From an uncultured bacterium (GTDB lineage Bacteria > Chlamydiota > Chlamydiia > Chlamydiales > SM23-39), in the NCBI GenBank assembly GCA_964466185.1, contig CAYXMS010000001.1, forward strand, positions 2,284 through 66,283: 64,000 nucleotides of DNA, in the 5' to 3' direction. The notes beneath the pieces are model-generated. The model did not search any database, was not told where the DNA came from, and worked only from the letters and a program-made list of their open reading frames with translations. Below, piece after piece: positions 41,107 to 54,350 of the stretch. Positions within the stretch are counted from its first letter, which is position 1; every line of letters begins with the position of its first letter. A program made the position numbers and the translations under genes.

Positions 41107-42387
41107 TTAAAAATCAAGCCTTGCAGTGATGGTCAAACCATGCATGAAGAAATCTTCAAGATCAGAATTAGATCTGGAATTAACCACTCCTGAAGTTCCT
41201 CTAGCAGAAAGTACCGTGCTGTTTAAAATTTGACTGGAAACTTTTCTCATATAATTCTGCTCAAAATAATAAATAAATTCATAGAGAGCTTTTACAGAGA
41301 AATGCCAGCTATTATCAGCAAAGTAAGTTCCCCATCCAAGACCTAGATTACCCTCTAAAACAGGGGTTATCTGGCTGTAGTCTTTATTGCCTAAACGGCT
41401 ATAATGATCAGAAAATTCAGCAGAGCTTTGCTTATAATCAACTGTAATACTTTGATAAGCTAAAGCACCGGCTACGTCTGCTTCCAAATCAAAACCGGCT
41501 CCCAATATCCATTGGCCGTCTAATCCGGTACGAGGACCCAGCAGCCAAGAATTGCTGTGAGCAATGCCCTTGATGAGTAGAAGAGAATCTTGAATTTTTC
41601 CAACAGTGGTAAAATCAAAATCAATCCAGCCACTAGTTAAACCAAAGAAAGGACGCATGGTTAAACAGGTGCTTTCATATAAAGGACGGGCAAATTCTAA
41701 ATTAAACATGTTGTATTTAGTTTCTAACTTGCCGGTTAAATGCATGAAAGGACCAGAAGTTGCATCTGTCGGAGTGTTGTGTTCTAAACTGGAATCTATC
41801 CATAAAGAAACTAGACGCTCTGGAAAATTGAGCCAAGAATATGTGCTTAAAGAAACAGAAGAACTGTTAGTTCCGGTTAAACGGACATACTCAATCATCA
41901 TTGTCCAATTGTCATGGGCTAAATTGGTGCCCAAAGCTAATTTAAAGCCAGGCTTATAATCGCTTTGGCTTACATTGTGTAGTTTGTATACACGATTTAC
42001 CGGAGGAGATACAGCATTGACATTGGTATTATAATCAGCCGGTCTGGTAATTGCATATTCCATACCCTTTAATTTAGGCAGCCAATAAATAAAGCTTCCT
42101 TTTATAAAAGCATCCCAGCTGTTCGTAACATCAATTCTAGCAGGAGCGTTATAAGCACTCATCATCTGATCTTCTTCGATGCTATAGCCTTGATCGTAAG
42201 GCGGTAGTTTTTCAGTATCAGTACATTCTTCTGTACTGTTATTATAAGAAATTGGCTCTTCGTTTAAACCGATTTCTTCTTGTTGTACAGAATTGGAAAA
42301 AATATCTTCCGAAACTTCATCTGCACTAACGTAAGATGCTGTTATTGCAAAAACAGCTATCAAAGAAAAAAACTTTAAAAGACGCAT
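41107..42387 (-). CDS. MOMP-like beta-barrel porin family, paralog 2
   Basis: 426 aa with the same motifs (PPYDQGYSIEEDQMMSAYNAPARIDV, FNLEFARP, SNSWLLGPR). C-terminus GLTITARLDF. Confidence 0.7.
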   Translation of the reverse strand: MRLLKFFSLIAVFAITASYVSADEVSEDIFSNSVQQEEIGLNEEPISYNNSTEECTDTEKLPPYDQGYSIEEDQMMSAYNAPARIDVTNSWDAFIKGSFIYWLPKLKGMEYAITRPADYNTNVNAVSPPVNRVYKLHNVSQSDYKPGFKLALGTNLAHDNWTMMIEYVRLTGTNSSSVSLSTYSWLNFPERLVSLWIDSSLEHNTPTDATSGPFMHLTGKLETKYNMFNLEFARPLYESTCLTMRPFFGLTSGWIDFDFTTVGKIQDSLLLIKGIAHSNSWLLGPRTGLDGQWILGAGFDLEADVAGALAYQSITVDYKQSSAEFSDHYSRLGNKDYSQITPVLEGNLGLGWGTYFADNSWHFSVKALYEFIYYFEQNYMRKVSSQILNSTVLSARGTSGVVNSRSNSDLEDFFMHGLTITARLDF

Positions 42388-42434
42388 GTGTTTTGATTCT
42401 CCATTTTTAACTTAAATTTTAATTATTAATATCA

Positions 42435-42463
42435 ACCATAAACATTTGCCCTAATTTTTTCAA
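42435..42463 (-). promoter_or_regulatory. putative promoter of porin paralog 2 (TTGAAA-17-TATGGT)
   Basis: The spacing was counted directly. The leader sequence is conserved with paralog 3 (…AAAATGGAGAAT(C/T)AAAACACATG). Confidence 0.45.
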
Positions 42464-42620
42464 CAGAACTTCTAATTTTATTTTTATTTTTTTTAAAATT
42501 AAAAGAAGTTTGGGAAAAATGGCTCTTAAAATTTGGTCGTTTTGAAAAAAATGAAAGCTGAAAACTATTAGGGAAAGTTGTGTTTATCAAATTGAAAAAA
42601 AAGAAAAGTAATAAACGCAG

Positions 42621-42660
42621 AAAAAGAAAAAGGCCAAGTTATTTAGACTTGGCCTTTTTC
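42621..42660 (-). terminator. rho-independent terminator after porin paralog 3
   Basis: AAAGGCCAAGT-TATTTAG-ACTTGGCCTTT hairpin followed by TTTTTCTTTTT on the minus strand. Confidence 0.75.
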
Positions 42661-42683
42661 AAAAAAATTCAAGTTCAAGACTG

Positions 42684-43967
42684 TTAGAAATCAAGTCTTG
42701 CAGTAATTGTTAATCCATGGATGAGTAAGTCCTCAGGCTTGGAATTAGATCTTGAGTTGACTGTACCAGCAGTTCCTACACTAGAAAGCACTGTGCTGTC
42801 CAAAATTTGGCCAGAAACTTTTCTCATGTAGTTTTGGTCAAAGTAGTACAAGAACTCATACAGAGTATGTAAAGAGAAATGCCAGCCGTTGTCAGCAAAG
42901 TAAGTTCCCCAGTTCATACCTATGTTACCTTCTAAAACAGGAGTGATTTGAGTGAATTTCTTGTAGTTAAACAGTCGTGAATAGTGAGTAGTAAAACTAT
43001 CAGAACGCTGCTTATAGTTAACTTTGATGCTTTGATAAGCTAAAGTTCCAGCAATATCACCTTCAATTGCAAAGCCATAGTCTAAAATCCAGTTGCCATC
43101 AACCCCGAAACGTGGGCCGATTAACCAAGAATTGCTATGAGACTTAGCTTGTAAAGTAAAAGTATCAGTTAAAATAGTACCAACTGTTGTAAAGCTTTGC
43201 TTAATCCAGCCGCCAGTTAAACCCATATGGGGACGGAAAGTTAAACAAGTACCTTCATAAAAAGGACGAGCAAATTCCATGTTCAACATGTCATATTTGC
43301 TTTTTAGCTTGCCGGTCAATTTAGTAAATTGTCCTTGGCTGCTAGCTGTATCTAAAGTATTGTGCTCTAAATGGGAATCCATCCATAAAGAAATTAAACG
43401 CTCTGGATAAGTTGTATAATCTCCAGTGCTTTGAACTGTAGATGAATGGTTGTCGCCATGTAAACGCACATACTTGACTAAAGCAGTCCAGTTGTCATGG
43501 GCTAAATTAGTAGCTAGGGCAATTTTAAAACCAGATTTATAGTTCTGATCTACATCATGTAACTTATAAGTATAGTCAATGGCCTCATTAGTAGTATTGA
43601 AATCTGCTGGTCTAGTAATTGCATATTCCATACCTTTTAATTTAGCCAGCCAATAAATGTAACTTGCTCTGATGCTAACATCCCAAGAGCCGGTAACATC
43701 AATTCTAGCAGGAGCGTTATAAGCGCTCATCATCTGGTCTTCTTCAATGCTGTATCCCTGGTCATAGGGAGGCATTTCTTCTGTATTGGTATCAGCACGC
43801 TCGTCGGCGGCACTGTGATAAGTAATTGGCTCATTATTAAGACCAATTTCTTCTTCTTGTAAAGCATTTGAAGGAACAATTTCTGGTTCAGGAGCTTCAT
43901 CTGCTTTTAAATATGTTACTGCTAAAACGCCAACAGCAACTAAGGAAAAAAACTTAAACAAACGCAT
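42684..43967 (-). CDS. MOMP-like beta-barrel porin family, paralog 3 (closest to paralog 2)
   Basis: 427 aa, roughly two-thirds identical to paralog 2 by eye. It contains the identical block PPYDQGYSIEEDQMMSAYNAPARIDV and ends GLTITARLDF. Confidence 0.7.
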   Translation of the reverse strand: MRLFKFFSLVAVGVLAVTYLKADEAPEPEIVPSNALQEEEIGLNNEPITYHSAADERADTNTEEMPPYDQGYSIEEDQMMSAYNAPARIDVTGSWDVSIRASYIYWLAKLKGMEYAITRPADFNTTNEAIDYTYKLHDVDQNYKSGFKIALATNLAHDNWTALVKYVRLHGDNHSSTVQSTGDYTTYPERLISLWMDSHLEHNTLDTASSQGQFTKLTGKLKSKYDMLNMEFARPFYEGTCLTFRPHMGLTGGWIKQSFTTVGTILTDTFTLQAKSHSNSWLIGPRFGVDGNWILDYGFAIEGDIAGTLAYQSIKVNYKQRSDSFTTHYSRLFNYKKFTQITPVLEGNIGMNWGTYFADNGWHFSLHTLYEFLYYFDQNYMRKVSGQILDSTVLSSVGTAGTVNSRSNSKPEDLLIHGLTITARLDF

Positions 43968-44012
43968 GTGTTTTAATTCTCCATTTTGACTTTAATTTTT
44001 CAATTAACATCA

Positions 44013-44041
44013 AACATAACCGTTTACAAGAATTTTTTCAA
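44013..44041 (-). promoter_or_regulatory. putative promoter of porin paralog 3 (TTGAAA-17-TATGTT)
   Basis: The spacing was counted directly, and the block is conserved with the paralog 2 upstream region. Confidence 0.45.
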
Positions 44042-44174
44042 CTACCTTGTTAAAAAAAATGTTTTTTAGAAAAAAAAGAAGAAAAAAACAATAGAGAAAA
44101 TCTAAATATAAAAAAAAAGACAAACAAAAATTATTCTGCTTGTCTTTAGACTTCAAAGAACGGTTTTTTATCAT

Positions 44175-44515
44175 TTACGCACCGTAAAACCCAGTCCTTT
44201 AGGGCTGGGATACAAGGTGCGAGTTAAAAAATGCGGGCTTTAATGCCGTTAAGGCCTCCGCCCGCTAGAGTAATCCACATCGAGATTGTTAGAAGGAGTT
44301 TTTGAACCTGCCACACTGAGAGTTTCCTCTCTGTTTAATGACAGATCACAGTTGCTACGGACTTGTGGAGCATCCGTAGGTGTGTATGTATCTCTTCCAA
44401 CTAACTGCTGCTTAAAGTTTCCTTTAAGCCCTCTAATCAACCAGTTTAAGGCCCACCGGCCTTTTCCCTTGTGCCTCACGGCTCAAGCCTCTCCCTTTAG
44501 GGAGGGGTGATTGAC
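44175..44515 (-). mobile_element. protein-less HEARO/omega-RNA-like element (copy 1; PATE/MITE-like IS200/605-IscB derivative)
   Basis: On the minus strand it starts GTCAATCACCCCTCCCTAAAGGGAGAGG, 6 nt after the porin TAA. About 290 nt are homologous to 54350-54075. Internal hairpins: CTTAAAG-GAAA-CTTTAAG, CTACGGA...TCCGTAG and GAGAG-GAAA-CTCTC. It has a terminator at 44265-44225 and a distal hairpin at 44221-44178 with the same CC(C)TAAAGG apex as the 5' hairpin. Confidence 0.65.
44225..44265 (-). terminator. terminator closing the copy-1 RNA (GCGGGC...GCCCGC + ATTTTTT)
   Basis: A 6-bp GC stem (44265-44260 / 44238-44233) followed by a T-run on the minus strand. Confidence 0.6.
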
Positions 44516-44521
44516 ACTAAA

Positions 44522-45580
44522 TTAAAAATCCAGTCTAAAAGAAAAAGTGAATCCATGCAGCATAAGATCTCCGGCAGAAGGAGCTGATAAGTTAGTAATT
44601 TCTTCTTCTAACGATTTCATCATGTTTTGATTGAAAAAAACTAAAAAATCATAGCCGGCTGAAATGTCTAAGTGCAAACGGTCCTGCCATAAGTAAGAAC
44701 CCCAAGCAAAACCAACTCCTATTTCCCAATCGGAATTAATATATCCTTTATTATATTTGGACAAATTAATCAGATAGGTAGACAAAGGGTCTAAATATTC
44801 TTTGGCGCTGACTTGAAAATCCTGATAAAATAAAGCAGCTGCCAGATTAACGAAAAATCTAAATCCCTCATCCAGCATCCAATTGCTATTTAAACCAATG
44901 CGCGGACCAATCAGCCAGGCAGATTCTTCTTCGTTAATGGCATATTTTGATCCGGAAGAAGTATAAATATCATTATCTGAATTTTGTTTTATCCAGGCGG
45001 CTTTTAATCCAAAGAAAGGAGAGAAAATTAATTGGGTTCCATAGTAAAAAGGACGGGATATAATCAAATCCAGCATATCTAGATTCAATTTCCAGCCGCT
45101 GGACAGTTTGTCTGGATTGACTAAATCTCCAACTGAGGCCATATCATGCAGAGTATAAAAATTAAATGGATCAGTATCAACCTTGGATCGTTCCGAATGC
45201 TGAGAGCGGTGTAAAAATGTATAATCTAGTTGAGCAATCCAATTGTCTATGCCTAAATTAGAACCAAGGATTAGCTTGAAACCAGGTTTGTAATCAAAGT
45301 CCATATGCACAATTTTAGCGGGATTTCCAGCCGGATCAGAGGGAGTAGTATATGCCAGATCCAAACCCTGTTCTATTGCCTGCCATACAATACAAGCCCC
45401 TGTAAAATAAAAGTCCCAGTTTTCTTTTACATCATATCTGGCAGGAGAATTGTAGCTGTTTAAAATTTGATTCGGTTCAATTTCATAGCCCTGATTAAAG
45501 ACTTCTTCATCAAGAGCAAAAAGAGGAAGGCAAAAAATAAGAGGTAAAAGAAAAACTGTTTTTATTTTTGGTTTGAACAT
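44522..45580 (-). CDS. MOMP-like beta-barrel porin family, paralog 4
   Basis: 352 aa. Motifs: NQGYEIEPNQILNSYNSPARYDV, LDLIISRP and AWLIGPR. C-terminus GFTFSFRLDF. Confidence 0.7.
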   Translation of the reverse strand: MFKPKIKTVFLLPLIFCLPLFALDEEVFNQGYEIEPNQILNSYNSPARYDVKENWDFYFTGACIVWQAIEQGLDLAYTTPSDPAGNPAKIVHMDFDYKPGFKLILGSNLGIDNWIAQLDYTFLHRSQHSERSKVDTDPFNFYTLHDMASVGDLVNPDKLSSGWKLNLDMLDLIISRPFYYGTQLIFSPFFGLKAAWIKQNSDNDIYTSSGSKYAINEEESAWLIGPRIGLNSNWMLDEGFRFFVNLAAALFYQDFQVSAKEYLDPLSTYLINLSKYNKGYINSDWEIGVGFAWGSYLWQDRLHLDISAGYDFLVFFNQNMMKSLEEEITNLSAPSAGDLMLHGFTFSFRLDF

Positions 45581-45711
45581 TTTGTTCTCCGTTTTTTTTG
45601 TATATCTTTGGCCAATACTAAAATATTTGATACATATTTAAAAATAAAAAATAGAAGGGAAAAGGAAAATTATCAAGCAAAAAGAAAAAAATAAGATGCA
45701 AATTTTTCGAG

Positions 45712-45750
45712 ATAAAAAAAGCCGGAAGAAAATTTTTTCCTTCCGGCTTA
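45712..45750 (-). terminator. rho-independent terminator after porin paralog 5
   Basis: AGCCGGAAG...CTTCCGGCT hairpin followed by a T-run on the minus strand. Confidence 0.75.
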
Positions 45751-45771
45751 AGAAAAGATCAATTGCTTAAG

Positions 45772-46920
45772 TTAGAAACTAAAAGTTACTTTAAAGTTTC
45801 CACCGTGCAGGTATAAATCAGGTGCTGAAGTGTTTCTCAGCATGTTAAAATATCCTGCTAGCATGTTTTGATTCCAATACACGTTGAATACATAGCTTAG
45901 AGCTAAATCAACATGCCAGTCACGATCAGAGAAATACTTGCCCCAGCTGAAACCGATTTCAGTTTCTAAAGCAGGTCTTAAATAATCTGCCTTATCTCTG
46001 ATATCATATGTGCTGGATCCGTTTAATACGTCTGCTTGATACGTTTTGTTATGCTTATCTAATTTATAGTGCGTATGCAGAACCATAGCGGTTAAATCGC
46101 TAAGCATGCTAAATCCGCATCCCCAGTTCCATTTGCTATTTAAGCTAAACTTAGGGCCAATGCCGAAAGCGTTAGACTTAACTGATATTGGAAGAAGATT
46201 AGAAGAAGTATTAGCATGGTAATATCTCCAATTACCGGATAGTTTTTGCTTTAGCCAAGCAGCTCTTAAACCTATGATAGGCTTTAAGATTAACTTCTCA
46301 CCATTATAAAAGTGGCGAGTTAAGTTTAAATCTACAAAGTCCATGTCAAGTTTCCATTTGCTTTTGATATTTAAACCATAATAAAGGTTAATATCATTAA
46401 TGGAAGAACTGCACAAAGTACTTAAAGATAAGTATTTGTTATTAGCAGGGTCAGCATCGGCTTTTTTGCTGGATGAATCTTTAAAATGGAAATATTCTGA
46501 ATATAAAGACCATTTATCTCTTTCAATATCCCATCCGGCACGGAGTTTAAAGCCGAATTCCCAATCAAACTCATTGGTTACAAGACCAATAGTTCTATAA
46601 TGAGAATTCATAAGCTCTACTCTTTCAGCCAGCTGCATGCCTTCTTGCAGGGGATGTAAATATAACGCATTGCCGCCGACAAAGAATCCCCAGCCGTCAG
46701 CAACATCAATTCTACCAGGAGCATTATAGCCTTTCATCAGCTGATATGGCTCTATACCATAACCCGGACTATAACCTTCCTGTTTTTGGTTTTTTTCCTT
46801 TCTTAGCTGCTGTCTTCCATTATTGCCCTTGACGGTACCTGCAGAAAAGCTGGTACTCAGAGCTAAAGCAGCTAATAAGGTTGATAAAATAAAAAATTTT
46901 GTTTTCATTTTTTTCCTCAT
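45772..46920 (-). CDS. MOMP-like beta-barrel porin family, paralog 5 (divergent)
   Basis: 382 aa. Motifs: SPGYGIEPYQLMKGYNAPGRIDV and FVDLNLTRHFYNG. C-terminus GGNFKVTFSF. Confidence 0.65.
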   Translation of the reverse strand: MRKKMKTKFFILSTLLAALALSTSFSAGTVKGNNGRQQLRKEKNQKQEGYSPGYGIEPYQLMKGYNAPGRIDVADGWGFFVGGNALYLHPLQEGMQLAERVELMNSHYRTIGLVTNEFDWEFGFKLRAGWDIERDKWSLYSEYFHFKDSSSKKADADPANNKYLSLSTLCSSSINDINLYYGLNIKSKWKLDMDFVDLNLTRHFYNGEKLILKPIIGLRAAWLKQKLSGNWRYYHANTSSNLLPISVKSNAFGIGPKFSLNSKWNWGCGFSMLSDLTAMVLHTHYKLDKHNKTYQADVLNGSSTYDIRDKADYLRPALETEIGFSWGKYFSDRDWHVDLALSYVFNVYWNQNMLAGYFNMLRNTSAPDLYLHGGNFKVTFSF

Positions 46921-47280
46921 ACTGTGTTGATAGCTTATACCTTTTATAAGGTTTTTTTCTTTTGGATAACAAAAAAAATTTACTATGGCAACTATTTTTT
47001 TTAAAAAAGAGGGAAAACTTTTTTAAAATGAGACTTTTAAGTTCTTTTTTAGGCTTTTTTTAAGAAGTTGGTCTTTTTAAGTTAATAAAATTGTTTGTTT
47101 GTTTAAGAAGCTTTTATTTAAATGGTTATGTTTTGTATTTAACAAAAGAATAAATTGTTGAAAAATAAAAACCAGCCCTTTTTTGTTTAGTTAAAAAAAA
47201 TAAAAAATATTTTTTATTTGAAGAAATATTTTCAGGAAAATTCTTAAAAATAAGAAATAAAAGAATAGATGCCAGTTTTT

Positions 47281-48339
47281 TTAGAAAACAACGGCCAGCT
47301 TAAAACTTAAGCCATGAAGGGTTAAATCCCCATGTTTTCCATTAGTATTTAATCTGACTAAATCATCTATGCTTCTTAAAACATTTTGCTCCCAAAAACG
47401 CTGCATTTCATAGCCTAGCAGCAGCTCTAAATGCCAACTGCGATTATTGAAATAAGAGCTCCAACCCAGACCCCCTCCAATTTGCATGTTGGGAATTAAA
47501 AAAGAAGGACTATTTTTAAAAGAACTGTTATTGGCCGGGTTATCGCGGTCTGCTATATTATAGGTTACATCATGCTTTTGATAGAATAAAGAAGCCAGGC
47601 TTTCTGCATAAACCTTTAATCCATAAGGAAGTAAAAAATTAAGATGGCAATTGATCTTGGGCCCAATCAACCAGTTGTCGTCTTCTGTTTTCACTGTTAC
47701 TATATTATCATCTATAATGTAGTGTCTGATTTCAATCTCTTGGCTATTCAAAGCTGATCTAAGGCCGAATCCTGCATTTAATGTCAGCTGCATGCCCGAA
47801 TAAAAAGGCCTGGATGCCCATAGATCCAAATAATTTAAATGTAAATACCGGTTGGCTGAAATTTTTTCGTTGTCGGCAGTTGAATCATTGTAAATCCATA
47901 AAGGAGTGGCTAAAACTTCTGTAGAATTAAAAGAGGCTTCATCATCGGCATACAAACGTGTATACTGGAAAGCAATTTTCCAATCATCAAAATCTGAATT
48001 ATAAGTTGCTCCCAGTTTGAATCCGGGAGTATAGTCAGGTTCAAATTTAACCAGATGAGTCCGGTTGCCAGCATCTGCGTAGCTGCCAATATTCAAACCT
48101 TCTTCTAAAGCCTGCCATAGGATAAAAGAACCGGTTACTTCTACATCGAAGGCTTCTTTGACATTATATCTGGCCGGAGTATTATAAATGCCTACCATTT
48201 GACTTTCTTCAATTCCATGCCCTTGTTTAATATAGGAAGTCTCTTGATTGGAAAGTGTGGAATCAGATTCTGTTTGCGAAAAAACAAAAGAGGTAAGACA
48301 AAGGCAAACAGCAAAAATAGATTTAAAAAATTTAGCCAC
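47281..48339 (-). CDS. MOMP-like beta-barrel porin family, paralog 6 (divergent)
   Basis: 352 aa with a GTG start preceded by GGGAG. Motifs: KQGHGIEESQMVGIYNTPARYNV, LDLWASRP and NWLIGPK. C-terminus GLSFKLAVVF. Confidence 0.65.
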   Translation of the reverse strand: MAKFFKSIFAVCLCLTSFVFSQTESDSTLSNQETSYIKQGHGIEESQMVGIYNTPARYNVKEAFDVEVTGSFILWQALEEGLNIGSYADAGNRTHLVKFEPDYTPGFKLGATYNSDFDDWKIAFQYTRLYADDEASFNSTEVLATPLWIYNDSTADNEKISANRYLHLNYLDLWASRPFYSGMQLTLNAGFGLRSALNSQEIEIRHYIIDDNIVTVKTEDDNWLIGPKINCHLNFLLPYGLKVYAESLASLFYQKHDVTYNIADRDNPANNSSFKNSPSFLIPNMQIGGGLGWSSYFNNRSWHLELLLGYEMQRFWEQNVLRSIDDLVRLNTNGKHGDLTLHGLSFKLAVVF

Positions 48340-48775
48340 GGTTTTTTCTCCCGTTATTTTATTTTAACTAATTTAATAAAATAAGATTTTTAAAGATATT
48401 TTTCAATTCGTCTTTTTTGATTAGCCTAAGTCTGTAAAAGAACTACGTTAGAAAGGCCATGATATTTTAGGATGCGCCTTAAGTCTTGCGAAAATTGCGA
48501 GTCCCTTGCCTTGTCGTTAGTGGTTAAAAGTTCTAAAAGATAGGAGCGGTGCTGCTACCTTAAAAAGTCTTTTCAATATTGGCGACAAGGAATTTGCTGG
48601 TTTTTAGGTGCCATGGCGGTTTTATTTTAGCTATCGGAAAACTCTGAGTTTTTTAACTTAAATGGAGGAGCGGAATTTCCTCCTCATGTCTAAAGACAGC
48701 GGTATCCATGCTGTTATTTTTTTGATGAAATATTCTTTGTTTTCAGGCATATAAAAAAAAAGATGGAATAAGGAT

Positions 48776-49276
48776 ATGTCTAAAAATTTAAAAATTTTAA
48801 CTTTTATCTGTTTGCAATTATGTTGCCTTTCGCTTTTCAGCGCTTCTTTATTTTTAATCAATGATTCTAAATGGCAGTTGACGGCTTTAATAGAAGCAGC
48901 AGATGGTACTAAATTGGATACAGTAGTGTTAGAAAAAGGAAAAAAGATCCGCTGGAACACTGAACTATATAATAGTAAGGCAAAAGTGCCGCAAGTCACC
49001 ACTTATTCACTGACGCCTTTTACAGTCACCTGGCTTTGCCCTAATAAGGGAACTTATTCTGTTTGTACGGCAATCTCTTCAGGAGCTACCGTTTCGGCTC
49101 ATAGCGGATTTGGCAATTTTCGCTGCACGACTGAAGAAGAACTTAGAGAACAAAGAGAAAATATTGAAAAAGGACTGGAAGAACAAGAAAAAAGCTTGAA
49201 AAAAGAATTAAAATGTCCGCCCTGTCCTTCTCAAGAGAAGGGGGAAAATGTTGAAAAACAACAATCTAATAATTAA
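48776..49276 (+). CDS. hypothetical secreted protein (signal peptide, several Cys, acidic coiled C-terminus)
   Basis: 166 aa. MSKNLKILTFICLQLCCLSLFSASLF looks like a signal peptide. No recognisable domain. Confidence 0.45.
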   Translation: MSKNLKILTFICLQLCCLSLFSASLFLINDSKWQLTALIEAADGTKLDTVVLEKGKKIRWNTELYNSKAKVPQVTTYSLTPFTVTWLCPNKGTYSVCTAISSGATVSAHSGFGNFRCTTEEELREQRENIEKGLEEQEKSLKKELKCPPCPSQEKGENVEKQQSNN

Positions 49277-49305
49277 TGTTTTTAGCTTTTTGGTATGCAT
49301 AAGAG

Positions 49306-49833
49306 TTAAAAAAATAAAACAGCTTTTAAAGGGACGTCGTGCTTTTCAATAGGTAGAAAATCTTGAGAGAAATTTTCTTTTAAACCTATTCCAATAGTAT
49401 AGGCATGAGAAAGCTCTTTTAAAAAGCGATCATAATAGCCTTTTCCATGGCCGAGTCTATGTCCTCTTTTATCAAAAGCCAGGGCGGGAACTAAAATGAG
49501 TTTAATTTCCGGGAGTTTTAAATCGCAAACAGGTTCTTTAGGCTCCATGATTTTAAATTTGAGATGTTTTTTTAATTGGCTTAAATCTTTAACCAGACAG
49601 GGTTTAAGATTATTTTCGTAAATTTTAGGTAAAACCAGTTTTTCCTGGGCGCATAAAATCTGGTTTAAAGGCCAAAGATCTATCTCATAATTTAAAGCGG
49701 CAAAAGATAGAATTTTGGGATATTTTTTACAAAGCGGCAAAAGCGTATTAAGAGCTTTTTGAGCAGCTTCCTGCTTTCTTTTTTCCGAGATTTTAATATT
49801 TTTAAATTTTTTCCTCAAAACTGTTTTATTCAT
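49306..49833 (-). CDS. 5-formyltetrahydrofolate cyclo-ligase
   Basis: 175 aa with the family motif LILVPALAFDKRGHRLGHGKGYYDRFL. Confidence 0.85.
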   Translation of the reverse strand: MNKTVLRKKFKNIKISEKRKQEAAQKALNTLLPLCKKYPKILSFAALNYEIDLWPLNQILCAQEKLVLPKIYENNLKPCLVKDLSQLKKHLKFKIMEPKEPVCDLKLPEIKLILVPALAFDKRGHRLGHGKGYYDRFLKELSHAYTIGIGLKENFSQDFLPIEKHDVPLKAVLFF

Positions 49834-51088
49834 GAAAATCGGGCCTGCCTTTGGAATAGATGACTTTTTTTAAAAAATTACCGTGTTTGTCAAATAAAGT
49901 AGCAAGACCCTCTCCTTCCTGAATAGAAGAGGTTTCTTTTTTTTCTCCCTTTTTATAATATTTACCCTTTTTTAAAAGGTCATTGTCATATTCTTCTACC
50001 AACATTAAAGAGCCGTCTTCATAGAAAGAAGTGCTAAGGCCATTTTTTTTGTTATGATTTAATTCCGAAGAAGAAGCTAATTGCCCATTTTCATACCACG
50101 TTTTAACCTCTCCTTGTATTTTGTCGTCAGACCATTGTAGGCTGATTTTAGCAACTCCGTTAGGAAAATATTCTATTTCTTCACCTTCTTTTTTGCCGTT
50201 TTTTTGGTGGTATAAATGAATTAAAGATCCTTGGGAATTAAAACGTTTTACAACGCCATAGGCTTGTCCTTCCTGATATTCGATTTGGGTTTTTTCTCCG
50301 TTTTCATGGAAAAGAGTTTTAAAGCCGGTTTGATCTTGTATGAAACTGACAAGTTCTTGTTTTGGGTTAAAATAAACTCCTTCTAAGAGCAGATTGTTTT
50401 GATAGTGTTCTTTAAAAGCCAGTTTGCCATTTTTAAAATAACCAAAGGCTGATCCATTTTTTTGGTTGTGCTGATAATTTGCTTTTTCTTTGAAATTTCC
50501 ATTTTCAAAAAAAGTGATTAGCTGGCCGTGAATCTCATTATGCAAATAAGGAACTATTTTTTTCTTTTTGCCGGAAGAATAATAATAAGCACCTTCTTTT
50601 TCCAGCAGCCCTTGTTCATAAAAAAAACTGCCTAAAATATTCCCTTCTTCATCAAAAGCTAGGCTTTGCTGATCAAAAAGCCACTGTTTTTTATCTTCTA
50701 AAGCAAGCGAAGCAGGGCCTCCAATGACCTTTGCTTGCATAGCTAATTGTCCGTTAGGATAATATTCTAAATATTGACCGCAGGCATTGGAATCTATAGC
50801 TTCTAAATATTGCCAAAGATTGCCATTTTTATAATAAGAAGTAATCTTGGATTTTTTAACAGCCCGGTTATGGGGCTGATAAACCCGGACTACCTGTTTG
50901 TAGGGCTGCGGTTTTGCAAAGTCTGTTTTTTGAAAAGTTTTTAAACGGTCTTGCTGAGAAATGGTTTTTGTCATATCTGTTCTGTCTATTATCTGTAAAC
51001 AGACCAGCTCTTCCGAAGGTTTGGGACCGCAGCTGTTAAATAGCGAAAAAATTAAAAACAGATAAAAATATAAAAAACGTTTATTCAT
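49826..51088 (-). CDS. MORN-variant/YwqK-type repeat lipoprotein-like protein
   Basis: 420 aa with N-terminal LFNSCG (lipobox-like). The sequence repeats a Y(Y/F)xNGxLxxxxxYxxxxxxG unit many times. Confidence 0.7.
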   Translation of the reverse strand: MNKRFLYFYLFLIFSLFNSCGPKPSEELVCLQIIDRTDMTKTISQQDRLKTFQKTDFAKPQPYKQVVRVYQPHNRAVKKSKITSYYKNGNLWQYLEAIDSNACGQYLEYYPNGQLAMQAKVIGGPASLALEDKKQWLFDQQSLAFDEEGNILGSFFYEQGLLEKEGAYYYSSGKKKKIVPYLHNEIHGQLITFFENGNFKEKANYQHNQKNGSAFGYFKNGKLAFKEHYQNNLLLEGVYFNPKQELVSFIQDQTGFKTLFHENGEKTQIEYQEGQAYGVVKRFNSQGSLIHLYHQKNGKKEGEEIEYFPNGVAKISLQWSDDKIQGEVKTWYENGQLASSSELNHNKKNGLSTSFYEDGSLMLVEEYDNDLLKKGKYYKKGEKKETSSIQEGEGLATLFDKHGNFLKKVIYSKGRPDFHE

Positions 51089-51677
51089 TTAAAAACTCTC
51101 TTTTCAACAAATTTAAATTGGTTAAAAAAGTATTGTATGGGGTTTTGCTAAGGCTTATTTTCTTGACTATAAGCTGCGGAGAATTAGAACTTGGTTGATA
51201 AGAACTTATATATTCTTCTTCAATTAAACTTAAAAGCTGCATAATATCAGAGCTTGCTGCTTCAACAGGATAGCTGATTTCTTCACTTTCAATAATTTTA
51301 TTCTTAAAATCTTTTTTGAGATTTTTTTGCTTGAATTTCAAGGGGCGATTTATTTTTTTTAATCTTTTTTGAAAGTCGGGATTATTTTTAAATGCAGATA
51401 TGGCATTTAATTTTTGCATTTGATTTTTTTCGTTTTTCAAAAGTTTAATTTTTTCCAAAGTATTTTGTAGGAAAAAGGGGTCTGCTTGACGGTACCTGGC
51501 AAGCTGTCTTTTCCATTTTTCTTTTTCCAGACTGCGTTTTTGGCCCAGCTGCTGCATATTTTTTAAAGTTTTGCCTAAATTATAAACCAAGTTGATTTTA
51601 TGGAAATATAAGGCTATTAATAGCAGAGGCAGTAAAACAAAAAATGCAAGAATAAGATAGCGGTATTTTAAAAGCAT
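51081..51677 (-). CDS. hypothetical membrane-anchored protein (GspM/PilO-like topology only)
   Basis: 198 aa with a single N-terminal TM (YLILAFFVLLPLLLIALYF) and a Lys-rich soluble part. Overlaps the downstream gene by 8 nt. Confidence 0.4.
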   Translation of the reverse strand: MLLKYRYLILAFFVLLPLLLIALYFHKINLVYNLGKTLKNMQQLGQKRSLEKEKWKRQLARYRQADPFFLQNTLEKIKLLKNEKNQMQKLNAISAFKNNPDFQKRLKKINRPLKFKQKNLKKDFKNKIIESEEISYPVEAASSDIMQLLSLIEEEYISSYQPSSNSPQLIVKKISLSKTPYNTFLTNLNLLKREFLNE

Positions 51678-51693
51678 GTTTTCTTGTCAAAGT

Positions 51694-52120
51694 TGTAAAG
51701 CCAGCAAAATAGCCTGTAAAGCTGGTTCATGTAAAGCCAAGAGGCCATTTTTTTAGGCATATTTTTTAAGTTTGTAAAATTCCTCTTTTTAAGTTTTGCA
51801 CATACAATATGTTGAAACCTGATTAGCATATAATGTTGTCTTGAGGCTTTTTTTTTGTAAAGCCAAAAACACCCTTGTAAAGCCAGTAAAAACTGTCTTT
51901 TTTGCCTGTTTTTGACCCTAAACCCTGATAAAAGGCTGTAAAACAGGCTTGTAAAGCCAAGAAAAAAGTAATTTTTAGACAAATATGTTAATCTTTTTTT
52001 TAGAATTTTTCAAGTAAATCTAAACTACTATATGTAGGATAGGCACAACTACATACTGTATACAGTTTGGAAAAACCTGTAAAGCCAAGAACAGACCTGT
52101 AAAGCCAGCAATGTAAAGCC
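51694..52120 (+). repeat. array of same-orientation TGTAAAGCC motifs, usually followed by A (8 perfect, 2 one-mismatch)
   Basis: Perfect TGTAAAGCC starts at 51694, 51730, 51856, 51876, 51950, 52078, 52098 and 52112. The next base is A in 7 of the 8; at 51730 it is C. Variants are TGTAAAGCT at 51715 and TGTAAAACA at 51937. Two about 65-bp three-motif clusters (52139-52070 and 51757-51690, minus strand) both begin AAAAATGGCC. Confidence 0.9.
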
Positions 52121-52158
52121 AACAGGGCCATTTTTATAATTTGTTTTTTTTCTTTTTT

Positions 52159-53553
52159 CTAAGAATTGCAGTTAATGTGAAAAATAGCTTTATAAAACTC
52201 TTCCGAACCTTCCCAAACCATTTCCGGCTTAGATAAAATTTTAGGATCCTGTTGCAAGGCCGTATGGATTTTCCTGGCTAAAATGGGATTTTGAATTTTA
52301 AAAACCACTTCTATTTTGGCCAGATAAGGGGCTTGTAAATTTCCTATTTTAGGCAAAGATACAAGTTCGTATTGAAAACTAGTAATTTCTACCTGGTTTT
52401 GGGGAATCAGCGGATGAGAAGAGAGCCAATGTAAAACATAGCTGGCCTTGAGAGGTTTTTTGCTGAAAGGATTGGCTTTTTGATGTCTTAATTCAAATAA
52501 ATTATGATTTAGTTCCTCAAGGGTTTTGGGCGGCGGAGAAAAGAGCAAAGCACCATTTTTCAGCAGTTTTTGTTTTTTTTCAAAAAGCAATTTTTCTCCT
52601 TGCCAGACAATTACGCCTGATAGAGTAAGTAAAAAGGCAATGGCGGCAGTTAAAACCTTGTGTTTTTTCTTCCAGATTCTTTCAGGAAAAAATTCCAAGT
52701 CGCGGAACTGCATAAATTTTTTTTCTGTAGTTTCTAAAGCAGCTCCTATTGGAATTGCAAAAATGCTTTTCTCTGTTTCTGTTTCCAGTAAAGAAGAAAT
52801 ATTTTTTTTGTTTTTAGAAGAGATTAACAAATCTATGTGTTTTAACAGGTGCTTGTTGCCGGTTAAAAGCAAAGGCAGTTTTTCTTGCTTTGCAAAAAAA
52901 TCCAGGGTTTGGCTGATTTGTTGGTTTAATTCTTCTAACAGCTGTTTTTTGTCCCGCCCCAGTTTTTCGATGCTTTGTTCTTCTTTTTGACTGATGGCAT
53001 TTATACCTATATGAATGTTATATCCGGCTTTTAAGGTTTTGTCTTTGATCTTTAAACAAACAGTTTCTTCTTCGGCAAAATGCATGATCAATAAATCCGT
53101 GTTTTGAGGAAAGAAAACTCTAGCAAACCGAAACAGCGCTTGCTGGGAAGATACCGCCATATGAGGATCTATTTTTTTTAGAAAAAAACCTAAATGTTTT
53201 TTTTTAATAATCTGAAAAGAAAAAAAAGCTTTTTTGTTAGAGATTTTTTGAATTTTGGCGGCAACTGCAGTTTCGTCTTTAGGTAAAATTGTTACGATTT
53301 CTTTTTGCAAGTTAAGGTTTTTTTGTAAAAAACGTTGGCTAATTTTTTGAGCCTCTACATTTTTAATAAAAACTTGCTGAGGGGGTAAAACCCCGGCTGA
53401 AAAATTTTTTTTACAATACTTGTCAAGCTGCTTTACATCGTTTTTCAAAGTCTTTTTAAGCTTTAAAATCTTACCTTTTTCTGAAATTTCAGCTATTAAA
53501 GCTTTGTCTTTTTCTAGAAAAATACCCAATCTGTTCATGAAAAATGACAGCAT
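52159..53553 (-). CDS. hypothetical bitopic membrane protein, PilM/GspL-like organisation
   Basis: Cytoplasmic N-domain of about 310 aa, one TM (VLTAAIAFLLTLSGVIVW), and a C-terminal domain of about 130 aa. The track start at 53637 is a TTG; in-frame ATGs lie at 53553 and 53538. The function is inferred from topology only. Confidence 0.4.
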   Translation of the reverse strand: MLSFFMNRLGIFLEKDKALIAEISEKGKILKLKKTLKNDVKQLDKYCKKNFSAGVLPPQQVFIKNVEAQKISQRFLQKNLNLQKEIVTILPKDETAVAAKIQKISNKKAFFSFQIIKKKHLGFFLKKIDPHMAVSSQQALFRFARVFFPQNTDLLIMHFAEEETVCLKIKDKTLKAGYNIHIGINAISQKEEQSIEKLGRDKKQLLEELNQQISQTLDFFAKQEKLPLLLTGNKHLLKHIDLLISSKNKKNISSLLETETEKSIFAIPIGAALETTEKKFMQFRDLEFFPERIWKKKHKVLTAAIAFLLTLSGVIVWQGEKLLFEKKQKLLKNGALLFSPPPKTLEELNHNLFELRHQKANPFSKKPLKASYVLHWLSSHPLIPQNQVEITSFQYELVSLPKIGNLQAPYLAKIEVVFKIQNPILARKIHTALQQDPKILSKPEMVWEGSEEFYKAIFHINCNS

Positions 53554-54272
53554 GGCAACCAACTTCTTGCGCTGTTGGAAAAAATGCCGCCCCTCCGTTC
53601 GGTTAAAAATGTTTTTACGGTTTCTAATAAAATACAATCTGCAGCTTTTGCAGAAGCGTGTATTTTTAGATTATTTAATTTTCTAAGATCAAAATAACTA
53701 GTTTTTCTTTTTCCAAAAATAAAGCATTCAATTCCATTAAATAATACTTTATCAAACTTTTGAAAATCGCTAATAAACCGGGAGGCGGTATTTTTGATAT
53801 GAGAAGTTAGTTTATGTTGAATGGATGGAGCAAGCCAACCCTTTTTTTTATTTCCACGCTTTAAGAACCCGTCTTTTCTATACCATGTTTTGCGAGATCT
53901 TCTAGCTCTTCGATATTGTTTTCTTTCTGCCTTTAGTTTAACCATATCAGTTCTTAATTGAAATTCTGAGGTATAGACCTCTCTGGTTTCTGCGATAGCA
54001 GATGCCCCAATATATGAATATCCGCTATTAATACCTAATAATACAGGATAAATAATAGATACAATCGTGTTCTGTTCCGCCTGTCTTGTAGTAGTTAGAG
54101 TCGCATCGGGATTGTTGGAAAAGGTTTTTAAATGAGCCACACCGACTCTTTCTTTCAGGTTTTTAAATGGCTGATCACAGTTAAGCCAATGGCTTTTGCT
54201 AGGAACTTGCGAACAGCCCCTGGCTGAAATATTCGTAGGTGTGTATGTATTTTTTTTAACTAACTTTTGCAT
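53535..54272 (-). CDS. IscB/IsrB-family (RRXRR) protein, internally deleted and catalytically dead (or pseudogene remnant)
   Basis: LLGINSGYSYIGASAI matches RuvC-I with the catalytic Asp replaced by Asn. KAERKQYRRARRSRKTWYRKDGFLKRGNKKKGWLAPSIQHKL matches the bridge helix/RRXRR segment. FDKVLFNGIECFIFGKRKTSYFDLRKLNNLKIHASAKAADCILLETVKTFLTERRGG matches the IscB C-terminal domain. RuvC-II, HNH and RuvC-III are absent. An AAGGAG SD lies 6 nt before the ATG. Confidence 0.65.
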   Translation of the reverse strand: MQKLVKKNTYTPTNISARGCSQVPSKSHWLNCDQPFKNLKERVGVAHLKTFSNNPDATLTTTRQAEQNTIVSIIYPVLLGINSGYSYIGASAIAETREVYTSEFQLRTDMVKLKAERKQYRRARRSRKTWYRKDGFLKRGNKKKGWLAPSIQHKLTSHIKNTASRFISDFQKFDKVLFNGIECFIFGKRKTSYFDLRKLNNLKIHASAKAADCILLETVKTFLTERRGGIFSNSARSWLPCCHFS

Positions 54273-54350
54273 ATAACGCTCCTTATTCAGCCAGTTTAAG
54301 ATCCGCTGGTCTTTTTCTATGGAGGGCCTTCCTTTAGATAGGGGTGATTG
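54075..54350 (-). ncRNA. omega-RNA/HEARO-like scaffold (copy 2), overlapping the 5' part of the IscB-like ORF
   Basis: On the minus strand it starts CAATCACCCCTATCTAAAGGAAGG at 54350. It is homologous to copy 1 over about 275 nt. Shared stem: CTACGAA...TTCCTAG here versus CTACGGA...TCCGTAG in copy 1. Expression is not shown. Confidence 0.5.

Follow-up and report, generated by a model that had tools for sequence, protein, structure and literature searches.

A probable protein-less, IscB-derived PATE-like element with a full-length HEARO scaffold behind a porin gene of a chlamydia-like bacterium

PATEs related to IscB and TnpB elements are known; they 'often encode omega RNAs' and are acted on in trans (Meers et al. 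2023, 10.1101/2023.03.14.532601, Extended Data Fig. 2e and Discussion), and PATEs were also listed earlier (Kapitonov et al. 2016, PMC4810608). ISC elements start with 5'-GTCA at N|ATGA or ATAA targets, and where elements have common termini, iscB and tnpB are found on opposite strands (Kapitonov et al. 2016, PMC4810608). The IscB guide corresponds to the 5'-adjacent flank outside the right end, its transcription must come from outside, and IscB elements show a bias for the same orientation as the gene upstream of them (Meers et al. 2023, 10.1101/2023.03.14.532601). In this work we examined an element of this kind in a window of 64 kb (the whole stretch of DNA that was analysed) from a chlamydia-like bacterium.

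We consider it very probable that positions 44172-44515 form a complete non-autonomous, protein-less element of the IS200/IS605 superfamily, which is PATE-like and derives by deletion from an ISC/IscB transposon. The element, its neighbours and a second, decayed copy are as follows.

44172-44515, omega RNA on the minus strand: protein-less IS200/IS605 (ISC-type) element, 344 nt, left end placed to within about 3 nt
44270-44515, minus: omega RNA (HEARO) scaffold, RF02033, 119.1 bits over the full model
44448-44465, minus: window-specific insertion of 18 nt (AAAAGGCCGGTGGGCCTT) forming a small extra hairpin in one scaffold junction, from alignments
44226-44265, minus: 3' terminal hairpin of the omega RNA with an outer GC stem, then ATTTTTT; terminator-like
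44172-44221, minus (bottom strand): transposon left end, hairpin 44221-44178 plus terminal TAAATG
44167-44171, minus: transposon-adjacent motif (TAM) ATAAA (top strand TTTAT), from the alignment of left-end flanks
44516-44531, minus: guide-equivalent flank GGATTTTTAATTTAGT outside the right end, which includes the porin stop codon and the next 6 nt
44522-45580, minus: host gene, a porin paralog of the Legionella_OMP family in the same orientation as the element (Pfam PF05150, E=1.4e-25)
44106-44147, minus: probable native intrinsic terminator of the porin, displaced by the insert; 14-bp stem and T-run, from a terminator scan
53535-54350, minus: decayed HEARO and IscB remnant, HEARO part 54094-54350 at 25.8 bits

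The element retains a right end with a full HEARO antisense to it, a terminator-like last hairpin and a left-end hairpin abutting TTTAT. The whole iscB ORF is missing, and only about 10 nt separate the last hairpin of the scaffold from the left-end hairpin. No protein-coding gene was found between the ends, and the 344 nt are nearly all RNA scaffold, hairpins and ends. An RNA fold of the 371-nt region gave z=-5.8 against shuffles. All the sequence features listed in the initial annotation were present where it had placed them. Of the limits that it gave, 44175-44515, the right boundary was correct, while on the other side the element runs some 3-6 nt past 44178, to about 44172.

The omega-RNA/HEARO identity proposed there was borne out by a covariance scan. 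Rfam model RF02033 (HEARO), the model for the scaffold of the IscB omega RNA, matched 44270-44515 on the minus strand with 119.1 bits and E=5e-24 over model positions 1-211 of 211 (cmscan; gathering score 83 bits). In the cmscan alignment, the two GAAA-capped hairpins CTTAAAG-GAAA-CTTTAAG and GAGAG-GAAA-CTCTC and the stem CTACGGA/TCCGTAG, all recognized initially, are canonical HEARO helices. Among the short copies described below, this structure is kept with compensatory changes. The 18-nt insertion at 44448-44465 is treated as such by the covariance model and is missing from all the related copies aligned. No IscB-like ORF follows the scaffold, and the left-end hairpin starts about 50 nt past the end of the model. 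The locus thus carries a HEARO RNA but is not a canonical HEARO RNA-plus-ORF locus.

The Rfam model of HEARO includes no downstream structure (Meers et al. 2023, 10.1101/2023.03.14.532601). In the window, the model match is followed by an inner hairpin, GGCC-TTAAC-GGC then ATT, which is conserved and which in the full-length relative L045 immediately precedes the ATG of iscB. This hairpin is accordingly the final one of the omega RNA and falls outside the Rfam model. Around it, short elements have added an outer stem, here GCGGGC (44265-44260) with GCCCGC (44238-44233), and a T-run (ATTTTTT), the GC stem and T-run already pointed out in the initial annotation. The outer stem covaries among copies (GCGGGC/GCCCGC, GCTGGC/GCCAGC, GCTGCC/GGCAGC), and L048 carries at the same place a separate GGGGG-AGCAAT-CCCCC hairpin with a T-run, an independent terminator. 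The arrangement at 44226-44265 is that of an intrinsic terminator, with a GC-rich stem directly before a U-run on the transcribed strand. A simple terminator scanner made no call there because the 21-nt loop holds the inner hairpin. We infer, on sequence grounds, that transcription stops at this hairpin.

On the minus strand the porin TAA (44524-44522) is followed by TTTAGT and then, from 44515, by GTCAATCACCCC, as had been reported for an insert 6 nt after the stop codon. The first 5 nt of the scaffold, GTCAA, are also the terminus of the transposon right end (top strand TTGAC), and the first scaffold hairpin (44507-44488) doubles as the TnpA-type hairpin of this end. In about 45 copies the common sequence begins at GTCAAT, with unrelated flanks upstream. 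Since similarity starts at GTCAAT in all true copies, the right-end boundary at 44515 is correct.

The distal hairpin (44221-44178) consists of an outer stem CGCACC/GGTGCG, an inner stem CCCAGCCC/GGACTGGG and a TAAA loop, and is followed by TAAATG. This end is 82% identical by blastn to the tnpA-proximal end of an IS605 on the Xylella fastidiosa plasmid pXF27-J1 (NZ_CP009824), the match extending over about 60 nt of window 44160-44220 and including the ATAAA flank. From the orientation of the match, the plus strand of the window is the transposon top strand. This makes the distal hairpin the left end (LE) and places the omega RNA, in antisense, at the right end (RE). A left-end profile matched the window left end with E=9e-14 (nhmmer). 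Over 10 loci the left-end stems were 86% paired, with 8 pairs changed on both sides and 0/500 shuffles as good. The likeness between LE and RE hairpins suggested in the initial annotation holds as well: the right-end hairpin (44507-44488) and the left-end hairpin (44209-44190) have the CCCTAAAGG apex in common, and the profile built on left ends also matched right-end hairpins. About 50 related copies made up the comparison set for ends and architecture.

Both ends of the pXF27-J1 IS605 likewise carry CCC-TAAAGG-type hairpins. Unlike the window element, this IS605 is autonomous (tnpA and tnpB) and encodes TnpB instead of IscB/HEARO. Its tnpB and the window omega RNA lie on opposite strands relative to the common end, as published for ISC/IS605 pairs. 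In a search of a plasmid collection, it was the informative match among hits that were all short and partial.

The left end is bordered by ATAAA. In the alignment of independent left-end flanks, read on the omega-RNA strand, ATAAA or ATGAA occurred in 15 of 16 cases and ATAGA in the remaining one. ATAAA and ATGAA are the reverse complements of TTTAT and TTCAT; in Geobacillus, TTCAT is the TAM of GstIscB and TTTAT that of GstTnpB2 (Meers et al. 2023, 10.1101/2023.03.14.532601). ATAAA/TTTAT is presumed to be both the insertion target of TnpA and the TAM for IscB. Near-identical copies vary by 1-3 nt just before ATAAA (GG, GGT, TG, AAG), which leaves an uncertainty of about 3 nt in the left terminus itself. 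The flanks of the window element, TTTAGT and ATAAAA, differ, so nothing was duplicated at insertion; terminal inverted repeats are absent too. The element thus resembles ISC/IscB transposons in its 5'-GTCA terminus, its ATGA/ATAA-type site without target duplication, and a HEARO that is delimited by the right end, the guide lying beyond it; the element differs from them in having no iscB ORF at all. An insert-free porin 3' region is predicted to join ...TTTAGT directly to ATAAAAAACCG. The pattern CTGGATTTTTAATTTA-N0-10-AAAAAACCGTTCTTTG over this predicted donor joint found no match in JGI metagenome contigs.

At the four loci with an ATGAA TAM (L047:1318-1330, L048:3760-3770, L049 at about 3180 minus and L045 at about 4920 minus), the downstream gene started in every case with the ATG of the TAM itself, so that the element separates the 5' UTR of this gene from its start codon at the exact boundary. 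The downstream genes have signal-peptide-like N-termini (MKFKFTLFF, MKKIILCF, MKNKKYLF, MNLKPKIK).

Related copies were collected by scanning GTDB species-representative genomes with CAATCACCCCTNNCTAAAGG. The 49 loci obtained were mostly in MAGs of Candidatus Anoxychlamydiales (K940_chlam_5, KR126_chlam_4/5/6, K940_chlam_1), and most of them stood at contig ends, as a multi-copy repeat is expected to break assemblies. An ORF-less HEARO at or above the gathering score, with an LE within about 50-200 nt, was present in four other genomes (L007, from KR126_chlam_6, L047, L048 and L041). A metagenome scan with the 3' hairpin specific to short elements added L070a, L070b and L071, as well as the partial copies L053, L059 and L068. 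The ORF-less architecture thus also occurs in marine-sediment metagenome contigs; one of these, L071, is identical to the MAG contig L007. Full-length relatives with the same ends (L049 and L045) encode IscB proteins of 450-458 aa with RRXRR and HNH domains, and their iscB ORF has this left-end hairpin at its 3' end.

L070a and L070b are 99.4% identical over 318 nt, 3 kb apart, with unrelated flanks. The presence of two such copies at different sites indicates that the short element transposes as such. In the related metagenome contigs similarity stops at the element boundaries, L007, L053, L059 and L068 representing further sites. The window copy is 83-84% identical to the L070a/L070b group. 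The initial suggestion of a PATE/MITE-like derivative therefore agrees with the conserved ends, the flanking motif, the recurrent ORF-less architecture and the near-identical copies at different sites.

The contig of one partial copy also carries an IS605 (L059:946-2640; tnpB minus, tnpA plus; 47% and 28% identical to their Xylella counterparts). Each of its ends has a CCC-TAAAG hairpin, and its flanking motif is apparently different (TTCAA-like). This tnpA+tnpB IS605 lies 2 kb from the short HEARO element, so in sediment metagenomes one contig can carry both such a transposase and a short copy.

Other arrangements were observed in the same collection. Very small elements of about 45-60 nt, resembling right-end/left-end fusions, were seen at L043:3553-3610 (+) and L025:1705-1650 (-); they start with TCAATCACC..., contain one hairpin and a left-end tail and are followed by ATAAA or ATGAA, and are possibly minimal PATEs or recombination scars. 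Two HEARO subfamilies were distinguished in the Anoxychlamydiales MAGs, the first in L003, L015-L018, L022-L024, L027, L029, L032, L034, L036, L039, L040, L043, L046 and L049, the second in L005, L007, L009, L013, L026, L028, L030 and L038. Both reach the Rfam threshold; their first 60 nt or so (right end and two hairpins) are nearly identical and the rest differs, which suggests a common transposase-recognition module with exchangeable cargo. A full-length IscB element with a scaffold of the window type (L042:3629-5061, minus) came from a bin labelled Candidatus Woesearchaeota, which could reflect horizontal spread or a binning artefact.

As in known PATEs, the window element is gene-less, has subterminal hairpins related to those of gene-bearing elements and a conserved adjacent target motif, and by analogy would rely on TnpA and a nuclease supplied in trans. 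Unlike TnpB-derived PATEs, it derives from IscB (HEARO); its RNA therefore runs antisense at the right end and depends on transcription from outside. A terminator-like stem added right after the scaffold and a host that appears chlamydia-like further set it apart from known PATEs.

The window contains five tandem, co-oriented Legionella_OMP (PF05150) porin paralogs (41107-48339, minus), and the insert follows the stop codon of the fourth only. An exact-protein look-up of the downstream 427-aa porin returned no record. A stem with a T-run (44147-44116), the probable native terminator of the host porin, begins 20 nt past the left end, and in the neighbouring porin paralog 23 nt separate the stop codon from the terminator. 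The insertion thus falls downstream of the porin stop codon but ahead of what is probably the native terminator. No promoter-like site was found between this stop codon and the right end; a candidate promoter is located upstream of the porin start (45676-45648). Because the insert precedes the porin's own terminator, the guide, which corresponds to the porin 3' end, is obtainable solely by porin read-through. Such read-through had been anticipated in the initial annotation, and it is compatible with both the anatomy of the locus and the published outside-transcription rule.

Among the gathered copies, the nearest upstream ORF was co-oriented in 25 cases and opposed in 12, in a crude count in which several of the 12 are pattern-only matches outside any element. 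This agrees with the published bias. For about 10 co-oriented copies, the distance to a stop codon is less than 30 nt. The L047 copy also directly follows an outer-membrane-protein-like gene, and partial synteny was seen between the window and L047; this synteny and the origin of the nearest element copies point to a chlamydia-like host.

We propose that read-through from the porin would yield an RNA with a 5' guide of about 16 nt (GGATTTTTAATTTAGT) followed by the scaffold and ending at the internal terminator near 44226. If another part of the genome supplied an intact IscB, the protein would be guided by this RNA to the empty site, where a match to the guide is followed by a 3' ATAAA. After excision of the element by a Y1 TnpA acting in trans, an IscB cut at the empty site would restore it, as in the published model. 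Within the window, the sole cognate target of the guide would be the empty site followed by ATAAA. A search of the window with the guide 16-mer, allowing up to 3 mismatches, returned chance-level matches only, none better than 3 mismatches and none at the 3' ends of the other porins, where targets had also been envisaged. Without IscB and TnpA proteins, the element would be an inert passenger in the porin 3' UTR.

The latter situation may already be the actual one. It is a real possibility, although we lean against it, that the element is an inert fossil, right in structure but now immobile and decaying in the porin 3' UTR with no partner nuclease. Neither an IscB nor a TnpA for it was found in the 64-kb window: tblastn with three IscB, one TnpA and one TnpB queries recovered only the decayed remnant (53589-54272). 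In this remnant the IscB-like ORF is destroyed and the HEARO has fallen to 25.8 bits, and the window holds a single intact copy. On the other hand, the window scaffold scores 119 bits, on par with the 117-121 bits of scaffolds adjoining intact iscB genes; its helices are kept by compensatory changes despite about 17% divergence from its closest relatives; and both ends and the TAM are intact. Moreover, the upstream porin was found in one Logan contig only (SRR7048224; L001, corresponding to window 44487-53647), which ends inside the IscB remnant at one side and 29 nt into the element at the other, and this second break hints at other copies in the sample.

A role in the host is, in our opinion, improbable. 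If the element had been domesticated as a 3'-UTR module, its structured RNA together with the terminator would serve the stability or termination of the porin mRNA and no longer a transposon. The position 6 nt after the stop codon, with a terminator-like hairpin upstream of the native one, would suit such a function, as would the many related copies less than 30 nt from a co-oriented stop codon and the L047 copy behind an outer-membrane-protein-like gene. However, the need for outside transcription of the guide already explains a position after co-oriented genes, the other four porin paralogs have no insert, and a 3'-UTR module has no need for intact transposon ends and a TAM.

Hardly any likelihood is left for the idea that the element has a partner in trans in the IscB-like protein whose ORF lies at 53535-54272, 9 kb away. 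The two do lie within one 10-kb stretch and share scaffold homology. The initial annotation had described about 290 nt of homology, reaching into the first 60 codons of the IscB-like gene. The homology is real but restricted to the RNA scaffold, about 245 nt of the window copy aligning with 54094-54350, and the 'first 60 codons' are decayed scaffold and not coding, because the ORF caller chose an ATG (54272) inside the decayed RNA. As for the remainder of this 245-aa ORF, it shows a 37-residue gap at the PLMP region of L042, its RuvC-I reads GINSG (Asp to Asn) where L042 has the catalytic GIDSG, and its match to the RRXRR profile is limited to positions 49-137. No HNH, RuvC-II/III or TAM-interaction/C-terminal domain was detected in it, everything after the bridge helix being lost. 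With PLMP, the catalytic residue, HNH and RuvC-II/III gone, the ORF is a wreck and therefore cannot be the partner, and we rejected it as such. The left-end profile detected no left end for this decayed copy (53535-54350). The copy abuts a 492-aa ORF (52159-53637) without a Pfam match.

Equally remote is a small protein encoded by the 76-aa ORF on the minus strand (44249-44479) or the 74-aa ORF on the plus strand (44286-44510): both ORFs exist and tblastn gave 55% 'identity' to the N-terminus of the L042 ORF, but the similarity falls wholly within the RNA scaffold, the matched part of L042 comes before the PLMP region with which the real IscB begins, and the substitutions are compensatory for RNA helices.

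We thus retain the PATE-like, IscB-derived element as the reading of 44172-44515. Rather speculatively, and with more doubt than conviction on our part, ORF-less omega-RNA elements might constitute a self-propagating 'guide-only' lineage in chlamydia-like bacteria and not sporadic deletion products. They would bring their own terminator, land after the stop codons of expressed genes and borrow their transcription, and parasitise the TnpA and IscB of others; some copies may have been co-opted as mRNA 3'-end modules.

Omega-RNA-bearing PATEs are already described, and the current understanding of OMEGA systems is unchanged by the window element, which is a new, well-resolved example in a chlamydia-like host. 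Our literature search for IscB elements in Anoxychlamydiales found no description. At a practical level, the element explains the false N-terminal extensions or 70-aa ORFs that ORF callers place over HEARO, and the assembly breaks at the HEARO repeat in these genomes. It provides a fully dissected IscB-derived PATE, with both ends, TAM, guide, scaffold, added terminator and host-gene context, and such short elements transpose as units in genomes of the Anoxychlamydiales type. Its site, behind a porin stop codon and ahead of the terminator, is an illustration of how guides of the IscB type would come to be transcribed.
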